A program made the position numbers and the translations under genes. Of a DNA stretch of 64,000 nucleotides, positions 30,087 through 33,202 are shown one piece after another (positions within the stretch are counted from its first letter, which is position 1; every line of letters starts with the position of its first letter). The notes under the pieces were generated by a model. The model saw only the letters and a program-made list of their open reading frames with translations. It had not been told where the DNA came from and searched no databases. The stretch comes from a virus, in IMG/VR virus record IMGVR_UViG_3300037400_003528, positions 1 to 64,000 of that record, one strand, 5' to 3'.

Positions 30087-30611
30087 TTATTCATTAATAA
30101 CGTCAATGCAACAAGATTTCATTATTTCAAGAGCCATTTTATGTTTTTCTGGTGTAGTTCCTGCACAACAAGAAGCATCTACTACAATAGGAACATTGGG
30201 ATATGCTGCTCTAAGCGCAAGAGCATTAGAAATAACACAAATATCTGTACATACTCCAACTATTTCAATAGAAGTAGGACTATCATCTATAAAAAAAGTT
30301 TCCCAGTTAAGATAACCAAAATTATTTTTTGCTATTATTTTATTAGCAAAAGGAAAAAGTTCATCTATAATACACCATCCAGGTGTTCCTTCAATACAAT
30401 GAGGCGGAACATTTTTCATTTCGATTTTTTCTGGGTTATCCCATCCGTGGAGGGAATGACTATCTTGTGTAAAAACGATTTGGTCTGTCGATAGATTATA
30501 TTTTTCTTTAATTTTAGCTTTTATTTTAGGTACAATATCGCGGGCTTCAGGTGTCCCAAGATTACCCATTATAAAATCATTCTGCATATCTATTACAATA
30601 AGTGTTTTCAC
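30087..30611 (-). CDS. isochorismatase-family cysteine hydrolase, nicotinamidase (PncA)-like
   Basis: VIDMQNDF, conserved Lys and VCGVCTDICV catalytic Cys motif. Confidence 0.6.
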   Translation of the reverse strand: MKTLIVIDMQNDFIMGNLGTPEARDIVPKIKAKIKEKYNLSTDQIVFTQDSHSLHGWDNPEKIEMKNVPPHCIEGTPGWCIIDELFPFANKIIAKNNFGYLNWETFFIDDSPTSIEIVGVCTDICVISNALALRAAYPNVPIVVDASCCAGTTPEKHKMALEIMKSCCIDVINE

Positions 30612-30627
30612 TTAAATTCCTTTCTTA

Positions 30628-31518
30628 TTACATTATTTGAATTATATCATTATATAAAAGATGGTGCCGTCCGCCAGGAAAATCTTTACTTCCATGATAG
30701 TGACCAAAAAACCAATGTTTAAATGTTACATTATCTTCTATTTTTTGTAAAAATTTATGAATTGGAGTATTATCATACCAAGAGTAACCCATAAAAGATT
30801 TAATAGAAGAAGAACAGTCATGAGTAAAGATGTAATCTACCTTATAATTGACTTTTTCAAGGTCATTCCAAACCTTTTCTTCTATTTCTTTTGTAGGCTC
30901 TTCTTGCTCCCACCATGAAATTCCTTTTATCCGAAACATTTGATGAGAAAAGCATTTTTTATTATAGGCTTTTTTAAATTCATCATTGTCATTAAAATCT
31001 GCGGGATTAAGAATACCATCTGAAATATCGTGGCATGGTGCGCCATTATAAATAAGAATTTTTTTATTATCAATAGTAAAGATACCAGATTCAAGAACTA
31101 AAACTGAAGGGCGGAGGACCCTTACGAGACCGCCATTCCATTCTTTTTGAGGGTATCCTTTTTTAAATTTTTCTTTTTCTTCGGGGGGCATTTTTTTAAA
31201 AACCCAGCTATTTAGAAGTTTTTCGTCTTTAATACCTATTATCCTGTCATAATTTTCATGATTACCAAGAACAACAAGAGTAGTAAAAGACTTAGATTCA
31301 AGCCAATCTAATGCCCATTTTTCTGCGGACGACTCTTTGAAGGCGGTTGTACTTGTATCCCAGATGCCACCAAAGTCTCCGCATATAATTACATAATCTT
31401 CTTTTGTTAATTCTTTTTGAAGAGGAAAATTAGATGTATTGAACCGAGGAATAAAACCATCTGTAATTGAATGTCCAATCCGTGCGCCATGAGTGTCACC
31501 TGTTACAAAAATTGACAT
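30628..31518 (-). CDS. calcineurin-like metallophosphoesterase
   Basis: GDTHG, GDF, GNHE, GHYH motifs in order. Confidence 0.65.
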   Translation of the reverse strand: MSIFVTGDTHGARIGHSITDGFIPRFNTSNFPLQKELTKEDYVIICGDFGGIWDTSTTAFKESSAEKWALDWLESKSFTTLVVLGNHENYDRIIGIKDEKLLNSWVFKKMPPEEKEKFKKGYPQKEWNGGLVRVLRPSVLVLESGIFTIDNKKILIYNGAPCHDISDGILNPADFNDNDEFKKAYNKKCFSHQMFRIKGISWWEQEEPTKEIEEKVWNDLEKVNYKVDYIFTHDCSSSIKSFMGYSWYDNTPIHKFLQKIEDNVTFKHWFFGHYHGSKDFPGGRHHLLYNDIIQIM

Positions 31519-31574
31519 ATCTACTCCTTTCTTACGGGGGCTAGGTTATGTCAGGATTAAAGGTGCTTCCCGCA

Positions 31575-32021
31575 TCAATTATCAAACCAATAAAGAATAT
31601 ATACATCAGAAGGATAATAATATTCATATCCCGCAAATTCAATGTAATATTCTATTCGTTCGATAAAAAACTTAATGGGGTTAGTTTTATTACATTCTTC
31701 ATCCTTTTCATAATCAATAATAGTAGGGTTACATATTAAATAATTTTTTAAATCAGCAAGATTAACTTCTTTAAAACCAAAATATCCTATAGTATCTTTT
31801 TTTTCAAGTATTTCTTTAACAAGAGAAGGTTCAAGAAAAGCAGTGTGAAGTCCGTTAGAAGGGACATCTTCTTCTAAAAGACTAAATAATTCATAATTGC
31901 GAACATCGTAAGGAGGAATAGAAATATATTTATCTTTCTTTTTATTGAAAATTTCTACTTTATCATAATGTCCTGTTTGAGTATTTCTTATAACAATAGC
32001 TACATGAATATCCTTTCCCAT
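31575..32021 (-). CDS. hypothetical protein
   Basis: ORF track. Confidence 0.45.
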   Translation of the reverse strand: MGKDIHVAIVIRNTQTGHYDKVEIFNKKKDKYISIPPYDVRNYELFSLLEEDVPSNGLHTAFLEPSLVKEILEKKDTIGYFGFKEVNLADLKNYLICNPTIIDYEKDEECNKTNPIKFFIERIEYYIEFAGYEYYYPSDVYILYWFDN

Positions 32022-32078
32022 TGTATATTCCTTTCTGCGGGTGGTAGGTTATGTCGAGATTGAAGCTACGACCGCATT

Positions 32079-32327
32079 TTAGTTATTTAAATAATTTACT
32101 GAATGAAAAATAATGTCAACAATTTCTCGAATAGAGGAATCCGAATAAGCCATCTCTTCGGGAGGATTTGCAAGAGCAAAACTAGCTAATTGCTTGGGAG
32201 AAAAGTTGAAATTTTTATTATCCCATTCAGCAATCCGCTTTTCAAGAGAAAGAGAATCATGGGAGATGCCCTTGCTTTCCAAATAATCAGATGCTATTTT
32301 AAATGCGGCTATTGTTTTGTTGTTCAT
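32079..32327 (-). CDS. hypothetical protein
   Basis: ORF track. Confidence 0.45.
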   Translation of the reverse strand: MNNKTIAAFKIASDYLESKGISHDSLSLEKRIAEWDNKNFNFSPKQLASFALANPPEEMAYSDSSIREIVDIIFHSVNYLNN

Positions 32328-32470
32328 ATATTTTTCCTTTCTTCTTATTTATTAATAATATTATAATATAAATTTTTTAAAATTTCAAACTTGATTTGTT
32401 AGAGAATTTTTGATATAATATAAAAGAGACAAGAGAAAGAGAAAATAAGTGCGGCCGTTTGTTTTTAAAC

Positions 32471-32545
32471 GGTTGAAAATCAGAATAGCGCAAGCGCTAT
32501 TCTGAAAAAATCATTTATTCTGCTCTTCGAGCAGAATAAATGATT
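32471..32545. terminator. two adjacent perfect hairpins (tcagaatagcgc..gcgctattctga; aatcatttattctgctc..gagcagaataaatgatt) at a strand switch
   Basis: long perfect inverted repeats. Confidence 0.5.
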
Positions 32546-32731
32546 TGTAAAAAGATAAAAGAAGGGAGAAAAAATGGTAATTCGTTGTTAGTGTACTGCT
32601 TGTGGATATAATAGAGGTAGATTTTGCAGAAATAGGTTAATATATATAAATGTAAATGGTGTTTGTAGTAGATTATTACGGAAAGATTTCCGCGATATTG
32701 TTGAAGATAAATTTTTATAGGGGTATAGGAA

Positions 32732-33202
32732 ATGTTAGTAGGAATCACAGGACATAGACCAGAAAGATTAGGCAGAAATTGGCCAGTAGTAGAAAGATGG
32801 ATAGCAGAAAAAATAGATAAATATAGAAGTAACTGCGGAGAAGTAGGAGTGATTAGCGGAATGGCACAAGGAGTTGATCAGATTGCCGCAAGAGTTGCAA
32901 TTAAAAAAGGGGTAGGATTAAAATGTTATTTTCCTTTTCCGCATCGTATGAGTGATTTTGAAAAATATGCTATAGAAAATGCGGAAGAAGTTAGATATGA
33001 GTTTGATAAATATGTACCTCAATCCTACACAACCAGGGACCGCCGCATCGTGGATGATTGTGATGTGCTTTTAGTTGTATGGGATGGTGTAAAAAGTGGG
33101 GGTACTTATTATACTTATAAGTATGCTCTTGAGAAGGGTAAGAAGGTTGAAGTTTTTATGATTCCTGTTGTTGGTGCGGATTTGAATAGGAGGCCCATAT
33201 AA
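32732..33202 (+). CDS. YpsA/DUF1273-like SLOG-domain protein (GITGHRPERLG...)
   Basis: N-terminal motif matches B. subtilis YpsA ITGYKPFELG; AGGAAATG RBS; GC-richer than surroundings. Confidence 0.55.
   Translation: MLVGITGHRPERLGRNWPVVERWIAEKIDKYRSNCGEVGVISGMAQGVDQIAARVAIKKGVGLKCYFPFPHRMSDFEKYAIENAEEVRYEFDKYVPQSYTTRDRRIVDDCDVLLVVWDGVKSGGTYYTYKYALEKGKKVEVFMIPVVGADLNRRPI

Follow-up and report, generated by a model that had tools for sequence, protein, structure and literature searches.

The window analyzed here, comprising positions 1 to 64,000 of IMG/VR record IMGVR_UViG_3300037400_003528, is part of a large, low-GC phage (mean GC content, 32.2%). It carries intact genes for a PncA-like nicotinamidase, a calcineurin-fold metallophosphoesterase (MPE), and a SLOG domain protein, which a preliminary description of the sequence had grouped as a possible countermeasure to host defenses that deplete nicotinamide adenine dinucleotide (NAD+), and, behind the nicotinamidase gene, a homologue of the Major Vault Protein (MVP). 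Open reading frame (ORF) calls confirm the positions at which the trio had been placed as well as the adjacency of the PncA and MPE genes (Table 1).

Protein families encoded at the locus

By every sequence criterion that could be tested, the 174-aa protein appears to be a genuine nicotinamidase and a divergent member of that family. Its gene starts with GTG, with AAAGGA ahead of it. The protein matches the Isochorismatase family PF00857 (7.1e-25) over residues 3 to 172 and phrog_19305 (8e-36), whose annotated function in PHROGs is unknown, and a PDB sequence search with it retrieved isochorismatase-family hydrolases that include the nicotinamidases 5zn8 (2.9e-11), 1ilw (1.2e-10), and 3pl1 (7.5e-7). 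Its residues D8/K95/C125 and D50/H52/H71 align with D10/K94/C133 and D52/H54/H71 of P. horikoshii PncA, the catalytic triad and the zinc ligands, respectively, of that enzyme. Among 69 phage PncA homologues, the triad is invariant in 68 to 69 and the metal site in 68. The metal site has the Asp-x-His...His form that sets nicotinamidases apart from other isochorismatase-family hydrolases. In keeping with a divergent member, the NCBIfam equivalog PRK11609 gave only 25.3 bits against a cutoff of 174 and matched only the N-terminal 53 residues.

The MPE (296 aa) scores above the cutoff for PF00149 (Metallophos; 2.7e-10) and belongs to phrog_1649 (metallo-phosphoesterase). The superfamily motif set DxH / GD / GNH[ED] / H / GHxH is complete, and the corresponding motifs GDTHG (residues 7 to 11), GDFG (47 to 50), GNHE (85 to 88), H233, and GHYH (272 to 275) are invariant in 44 sequences; the enzyme is therefore predicted to be catalytically intact. 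Its structural model has a high predicted local distance difference test score (pLDDT 95), and its fold is matched best by Dbr1, the RNA lariat debranching enzyme, and by CWF19L1, with inserts at residues ~95 to 125 and ~170 to 200 that are unlike any solved relative. The predicted fold points to no substrate, and neither phmmer nor profile searches recovered a sequence relative in PDB, NCBIfam, or PADLOC. The assignments of these two neighbors to the isochorismatase and calcineurin-type phosphoesterase families, which the preliminary description had proposed to check with PF00857 and PF00149, are thus borne out by family scores, active-site motifs, and, for PncA, the alignments with nicotinamidases.

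The SLOG protein (156 aa, phrog_289) has overlapping Pfam matches to DprA, cpYpsA, YAcAr, and YpsA, and its predicted Rossmannoid fold is closest to YpsA itself, to which it is 16% identical; the ThsA SLOG structure 7uxs is also among the structural matches. Across 49 homologues, G47-V-D49, the predicted GxD nucleotide-binding motif, is invariant, as are H8, R9, R102, and D118 within the family, with D103 and T125 nearly so. Distant homologues carry the name “phage-like protein YoqJ.” The earlier label of a YpsA-family SLOG is supported by the fold, the GxD motif, and scores that pass the Pfam cutoffs of PF02481 and PF12694, whereas the score for PF06908 (YpsA) falls just short (26.6 bits, below the gathering score of 27.7). 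The gene had also been called GC-rich, and it does exceed its surroundings, but only mildly (38.0% compared with the window mean).

The 808-aa ORF downstream of PncA, overlooked in the preliminary description, is, judging by its repeats and shoulder domain, an MVP homologue, with Pfam matches to PF11978 MVP_shoulder (2.7e-25), Vault_3 (1.9e-6), and Vault (1.3e-3) plus Band_7. Phage MVPs were earlier reported from two gut phages, without context analysis (10.1101/2023.11.10.566534). Here, homologues that are 40 to 66% identical were found on at least 124 IMG/VR contigs and in megaphages of 462 to 735 kb.

Table 1. Features of the nicotinamidase locus and a suppressor tRNA in the window
Feature	Position	Strand	Basis or remark
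Suppressor tRNA, CTA anticodon	11091-11167	-	Inside tRNA array
Intrinsic terminator, 17-bp stem plus T-run	27585-27622	-	Directly 3' of MVP stop codon
Major Vault Protein homologue, 808 aa	27634-30060	-	26 bp downstream of PncA, same unit
Nicotinamidase, PncA-like isochorismatase-family cysteine hydrolase, 174 aa	30087-30611	-	PF00857, phrog_19305, active-site residues
Calcineurin-fold metallophosphoesterase, 296 aa	30628-31518	-	16 bp upstream of PncA
orf148	31575-32021	-	ORF; same unit, upstream of MPE
orf82	32079-32327	-	ORF; first gene of minus-strand unit
Promoter, sigma-70-type TTGAAA-17-TATAAT, for orf82-orf148-MPE-PncA-MVP	32360-32388	-	11/12 match
Second promoter-like site upstream of SLOG	32391-32419		Consensus scan only
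Promoter-like site for SLOG gene	32585-32612	+	10/12 match, consensus scan only
YpsA-clade SLOG domain protein, 156 aa	32732-33202	+	Divergently transcribed

Transcription units, codon reassignment, and probable host

As read from the sequence, orf82, orf148, MPE, PncA, and MVP constitute one transcription unit that is bracketed by a single promoter and a single terminator, with no comparable terminator between orf82 and MVP. That promoter is a member of the repeated early-promoter family D1 of the 35- to 47.6-kb region. The first two genes of the unit, orf82 and orf148, have no family match in Pfam (to E ≤ 10) or PHROGs. Two strong hairpins lie in the divergent intergenic region between this unit and the SLOG gene (32440-32545), and the ~500 bp 3' of SLOG (33203-33696) are noncoding and contain repeated AT-rich promoter-like motifs plus a GGGCAACTTTT hairpin.

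In a subset of the window genes, TAG is a sense codon. In-frame TAGs number 9 to 21 per gene in the structural/terminase region (53688-61289, plus strand), 2 to 6 in each of the lysin genes (23694-26590, minus strand), and 7 in the gene of no known function beside SLOG (33697-34464, plus strand), whereas the MPE, PncA, MVP, and SLOG genes contain none. This distribution is consistent with code-15 recoding of late genes, and the annotated relative closest in layout, phAss-1 (OQ749652; our locus L241), is classed in the “Caudoviricetes code 15 clade.” In recoded phages, TAG-containing genes tend to be late genes. The early-family promoter and the absence of in-frame TAG therefore suggest that the MPE-PncA unit is expressed early. 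Of the 29 tRNA genes in the window, 28 form an array (6.7 to 19.6 kb) in which a full-length ROOL RNA is embedded (RF03087, 279 bits; 14887-15483, minus strand).

The lysins contain CW_7 and choline-binding repeats by Pfam, and contigs of Bacillota and Oscillospiraceae metagenome-assembled genomes (MAGs) carry close homologues. Together, these observations point to a Gram-positive gut host, probably a Bacillota species. In two lysin-like genes, both with in-frame TAG, CW_7 repeats are fused with metallo-beta-lactamase and GH114 domains. Among INPHARED phages, there was no megablast match for 12 kb of the window.

In the segment at 34900-47600, sigma-70 promoters close to consensus (TTGACA-17-TGgTATAAT) recur at least 10 times, with a GC-rich hairpin after each. 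Three paralogous genes of ~135 aa also lie there (37675-38082, 40247-40666, and 42292-42657, the third copy recognized by DNA repeat only). Few credible ORFs occur at 40.7 to 47 kb, which is without an Rfam match, and an Rfam scan of 32.3 to 48 kb (intergenic plus early region) returned nothing but the tRNA. This segment may represent an early region with small structured RNAs.

Gene neighborhoods of the homologues

A pattern-plus-tblastn scan of IMG/VR yielded 68 PncA loci (35 to 74% identity) in 36 lineages after dereplication at 80% PncA identity; neighboring genes were clustered, and cluster representatives were checked with Pfam. The dominant partners are a Prs-like phosphoribosyltransferase (PRTase), a NAPRTase/NAMPT_N-family enzyme, NadE (3e-51), and a macro-like protein, which occur within 6 kb of PncA at 38, 32, 23, and 21 loci and in 11, 9, 10, and 7 lineages, respectively. 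In the annotation of phAss-1, the nicotinamidase, Prs (ribose-phosphate pyrophosphokinase), and NAMPT genes overlap and follow the tRNA array, and a single block in L164/L171 combines PncA, PncB (2.7e-56), NMNAT-Nudix, macro-like, NadE, and NADAR genes with a SLOG homologue. Since the neighbors of its homologues are NAD+ salvage genes, an NAD+ role for PncA is strongly supported through guilt by association. Tight operons of nicotinamidase with Prs-like, NAMPT-family, Macro, and NadE genes were seen at L246, L250/L294, L268/L297/L302, and L241 (phAss-1). The placement of a nicotinamide-destroying enzyme beside nicotinamide-using ones and NadE is suggestive of an as yet undescribed, deamidated reconstitution route.

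None of these partners was recovered around the PncA gene of the window. When neighbor-cluster hidden Markov models (HMMs) were run against a TAG-aware six-frame translation of the window, MPE and PncA were the only matches, and those for Prs-like, NadV-like, and Macro clusters had no match at E ≤ 1; Pfam detected no NAD+- or ADP-ribose (ADPR)-related domain and no other NAD-consuming enzyme in 41 further window ORFs. The NARP1/NARP1-AP set (Adps plus Namat, with or without the Macro phosphatase) was not encountered in the window, and the combinations NadV plus NMNAT, PnuC plus NadR, and PncB plus NadD/NadM plus NadE gave no HMM or Pfam match in the scanned ORFs of the visible 64 kb. With PRTase, adenylyltransferase, and NAD synthetase genes all missing, the visible 64 kb cannot rebuild NAD+ alone, and NAD reconstitution by the trio itself, a variant of which the preliminary description had raised as one option, is impossible. 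By the same reasoning, PncA most likely hands nicotinate to the host Preiss-Handler enzymes PncB, NadD, and NadE.

The SLOG-centered sample comprised 80 viral loci in 34 lineages, and in 6 of these lineages Macro, NADAR, NadE, or PncA lies within 6 kb of SLOG. These neighbors agree with published predictions: viral SLOGs, which are mostly of the YpsA clade and are present in 31% of jumbo phages, were predicted by Iyer et al. (2022) to act on NAD+/ADPR-derived signals (PMC9503650), and Brzozowski et al. (2019) described an NAD-associated YpsA branch and defined the GxD/E motif (PMC6459960).

The MPE family is large (>7,600 matches), and its link to NAD is weak. At 15 of the 68 PncA loci, representing 3 of the 36 lineages, a member is encoded upstream of PncA, and the family recurs there alongside Prs and NadV in the L016 and L026/L062 lineages. 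No universal partner emerged from 80 MPE-centered loci, a sample dominated by one lineage with integrase-like neighbors; an alternative context consists of AAA_15/23 ATPase and RecD2 genes. At L163 (104-2765), PncA on the minus strand and a divergent SLOG on the plus strand are arranged as in the window, and a minus-strand HAD_SAK_2 phosphatase (3.6e-26) occupies the MPE slot, which is possibly a non-orthologous replacement and is also compatible with a role in RNA-end processing. The NAD theme of the preliminary description is thus upheld for PncA, whose homologues sit in salvage or reconstitution clusters, and for the family neighbors of SLOG, but much less so for MPE.

As a set, the three genes are not conserved. 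Apart from the window, they occur together only in its immediate clade, which consists of L001 (PncA 74% identical) and the Bacillota MAG contig L324 (79%), where the order is SLOG (minus strand), small ORF(s), MPE, PncA, and SprT. L001 has a homologue of orf148 in the same position (75% identical; missing from L324) and one of orf82 (45%). SLOG is present in 1 of 68 PncA-centered and 2 of 80 MPE-centered loci, and MPE in 1 of 80 SLOG-centered loci. This restricted distribution, together with the placement of SLOG in a separate divergent unit, weighs against the suggestion that the trio works as one system. The MVP gene fits exactly between PncA and SprT, where L001 and L324 have no gene; on the L001 contig, MVP lies ~95 kb away.

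An MVP-centered sample of 80 loci (L244 to L323; 41 lineages at 80% identity) revealed a recurrent linkage with PncA, for which no report was found in the searchable literature. Within 8 kb of MVP, PncA occurs at 11 loci (6 lineages) and the MPE family at 19 (11 lineages). PncA directly adjoins MVP (-410 to +95 bp) at 9 of the 80 loci and does so in two orders, namely, PncA followed by MVP, and MVP followed by PncA, Prs, NadV, Macro, and NadE. Among the largest phages known, LR756501 (L242, 10007-16821) and LR756500 (L243, 9986-14444) each encode a distinct SLOG-superfamily protein of 181 to 207 aa after MVP, and in LR756500 a Macro gene comes next. MVP islands are also rich in RNA repair functions, including Thg1 (4e-29), an AAA_33 kinase, RNA ligases, RNase_T, NADAR, and other MPEs, one of them lambda-phosphatase-like. 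The PncA-MVP adjacency could therefore reflect a shared RNA-repair/NAD island rather than joint function.

Two further window genes have counterparts near MVP. A 531-aa DUF2828/DUF7788-vWA protein with 2 in-frame TAGs is encoded at 3978-5573 (minus strand), and its family occurs within 8 kb of MVP at 16 of 80 loci (9 of 41 lineages); the candidate identification of this protein as a TROVE (Ro60/TEP1) homologue was unsupported by Pfam at E ≤ 10 and by a PDB sequence search. Homologues of the nucleotidyltransferase-like protein at 5960-6748 (minus strand) lie within a few kilobases of MVP at 26 of 80 loci.

Proposed roles, alternatives, and comparison with known systems

Overall, we lean toward regarding PncA, MPE, and SLOG as three separate early accessory genes that share an NAD+/ADP-ribose theme in a TAG-recoding phage of the code 15 clade and that do not form a dedicated three-part system. 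Nicotinamide would be freed when host NADase defenses or ADP-ribosyl transfer reactions cleave NAD+, and the metal-dependent PncA would deamidate it to nicotinate, which would then enter the Preiss-Handler pathway through host PncB, NadD, and NadE. PncA may act as a one-enzyme booster or may be a reduced form of the multigene NAD+ salvage islands of related phages, and it would at the same time remove nicotinamide, a product inhibitor of NAD+-consuming enzymes. The MPE most likely hydrolyzes, at a phosphoester or pyrophosphate bond, a substrate that derives from NAD+ or from an RNA end; candidates are ADPR, ADPR-1''-P/Appr>p, and 2',3'-cyclic phosphate. For the SLOG protein, which has a separate divergent promoter, the likeliest activity is the binding or processing of a nucleotide derived from ADP-ribose. 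The intactness of the genes, their families and folds, the conservation of active sites, the layout of the operon, and the neighborhood counts come directly from the analysis, whereas substrates, timing of expression, reliance on host enzymes, and any counterdefense effect are inferred.

It seems unlikely that the three proteins instead make up one counterdefense system against NAD+-depleting or TIR-signaling immunity (Thoeris, DSR, SIR2), in which SLOG would sponge or degrade cyclic ADP-ribose (cADPR)-type signals, leaving their further breakdown to MPE and the recycling of nicotinamide to PncA. Plausible NAD/ADPR links can be drawn for all three genes, their layout is kept in the window, L001, and L324, the arrangement at L163 hints at a phosphatase-PncA-SLOG theme, and 3'cADPR is bound by the ThsA SLOG (7uxs). 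The trio does not, however, co-occur outside the clade, SLOG is transcribed separately, and the known anti-Thoeris families (RyDEP, Tad1, and Tad2) use other folds. It is very doubtful that SLOG modulates host cell division in the manner of YpsA from B. subtilis or the prophage protein YoqJ and has no part in NAD+ defense. YpsA itself is the best structural match, the YoqJ name recurs among distant homologues, overexpressed YpsA prevents FtsZ from assembling in Firmicutes (PMC6459960), and a Bacillota host is probable; yet linkage to gpsB is lacking, YoqJ does not retain the YpsA residues on which the division phenotype depends (PMC6459960), and phage SLOG relatives adjoin NadE, Macro, and NADAR.

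It is possible, if somewhat unlikely, that MPE is an RNA-end-healing or -processing phosphoesterase of the phage tRNA/RNA-repair repertoire (a 2',3'-cyclic phosphodiesterase, 3'-phosphatase, or 2'-5' phosphodiesterase) and that its proximity to PncA is incidental. Such a role is suggested by the fold matches to Dbr1 and CWF19L1, by the recurrence of the family in MVP islands with Thg1, AAA_33 kinase, RNA ligases, RNase_T, and a lambda-phosphatase-like MPE, by the “Swiss Army Knife RNA repair” HAD domain in the L163 slot, and by the 28-tRNA array of the window; for the NAD-linked reading stand the lineages in which the family lies upstream of PncA alongside Prs and NadV. We consider it quite unlikely that the functional unit is MPE-PncA-MVP, with a vault-like shell or scaffold working with NAD+/ADPR enzymes in an echo of the PARP4/TEP1-NIR vaults. 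The single promoter and terminator around orf82 through MVP, the adjoining PncA and MVP genes in two orders, the MPE family near MVP in 11 of 41 lineages, the SLOG-like and Macro genes after MVP in LR756500, the position of MVP between PncA and SprT, which have no gene between them in L001 and L324, and the eukaryotic vault-NAD link (10.64898/2026.09.04.749371) all speak for it. On the other side, the adjacency could be mere co-membership of an RNA-repair-rich accessory island, the 174-aa PncA has no obvious targeting extension, no MVP lies within 6 kb in the 80 MPE-centered loci, and the DUF2828-TROVE link failed. The broader idea, by analogy with eukaryotic vaults, that phage MVP is functionally coupled to NAD+/ADP-ribose metabolism and organizes NAD+-recycling or ADPR-processing enzymes during infection is speculative and similarly improbable.

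PncA, MPE, and SLOG add to gene types that had been described or predicted in phages before and are not a new three-gene counterdefense system; phage pncA was noted earlier (PMC10607447), as were pncA, pncB, nadD, and nadE in gut jumbo phages (PMC11662467). What the sequence best supports is a phage nicotinamidase that would serve as a minimal NAD+ salvage booster beside an MPE and a separately transcribed SLOG. NAD+ is a central battleground of bacteria and phages, and a nicotinamidase is part of none of the characterized NARP1 to NARP3 pathways. Well conserved among phages, this PncA family is regularly embedded in operons for NAD+ salvage and can also persist alone, as in the window, which points to a cheap strategy of plugging into the host Preiss-Handler pathway. 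Why a nicotinamide-destroying enzyme should stand alongside nicotinamide-using ones is a biochemical puzzle. The recurrent PncA-MVP linkage is the most novel lead of this analysis, and phage MVP genes that repeatedly abut PncA/NAD clusters make the unexplained vault-NAD+ link approachable in a prokaryotic setting.

Compared with bacterial and archaeal PncA (1IM5/1ILW from P. horikoshii, 5ZN8 from B. subtilis, and 3PL1 from M. tuberculosis), the window enzyme has the same isochorismatase fold, Asp-Lys-Cys triad, and Asp-His-His site and a similar length but is only ~25 to 30% identical, is phage encoded, and has its own PHROG. The MPE shares its dinuclear-metal motif set and core fold with ADPRibase-Mn, the Metis Cal NADase, Dbr1, and the Pnkp phosphatase but has no subfamily-level match among them; it was also considered as the “phage phosphatase” of NARP1-AP and rejected, as that enzyme is a Macro domain. 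SLOG has its fold, size, and GxD/E motif in common with YpsA (2NX2, B. subtilis), prophage YoqJ, and the viral SLOGs of Iyer et al., and Macro, NADAR, and NadE are recurrent neighbors of YpsA-clade SLOGs in phages; it has no gpsB partner. Compared by description, the Thoeris signal sponges and degraders Tad1, Tad2, and RyDEP have folds that differ from those of SLOG and MPE, and RyDEP, the sole enzyme so far shown to degrade 2'/3'cADPR, is not a SLOG. In eukaryotic vaults, which are tied to NAD+ via PARP4 and the TEP1 NIR NADase (10.64898/2026.09.04.749371), these components consume NAD+; on the reading that couples it to NAD+ metabolism, phage MVP would be a prokaryotic-virus counterpart.

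Other close parallels are the phage genes that restore NAD+ after attack by NADase defenses. With NARP1, NARP1-AP, NARP2, and NARP3, the locus shares this arena, and homologues of its PncA share operons with Prs/Adps-like, NAMPT/Namat-like, and Macro (Adpp-like) genes, the tight operons at L246, L250/L294, L268/L297/L302, and L241 resembling NARP1-AP in composition. None of the defining NARP enzymes is in the window, however, and PncA is not a component of NARP1, NARP1-AP, or NARP3 as described, nor is it mentioned in the NARP1 paper. The Preiss-Handler clusters of NAD-jumbo phages and phAss-1 provide a further comparison: phAss-1, likewise a code 15 phage, also has an annotated nicotinamidase, and the full set is found in L164/L171, whereas the window retains PncA only, paired with MPE and an MVP homologue.

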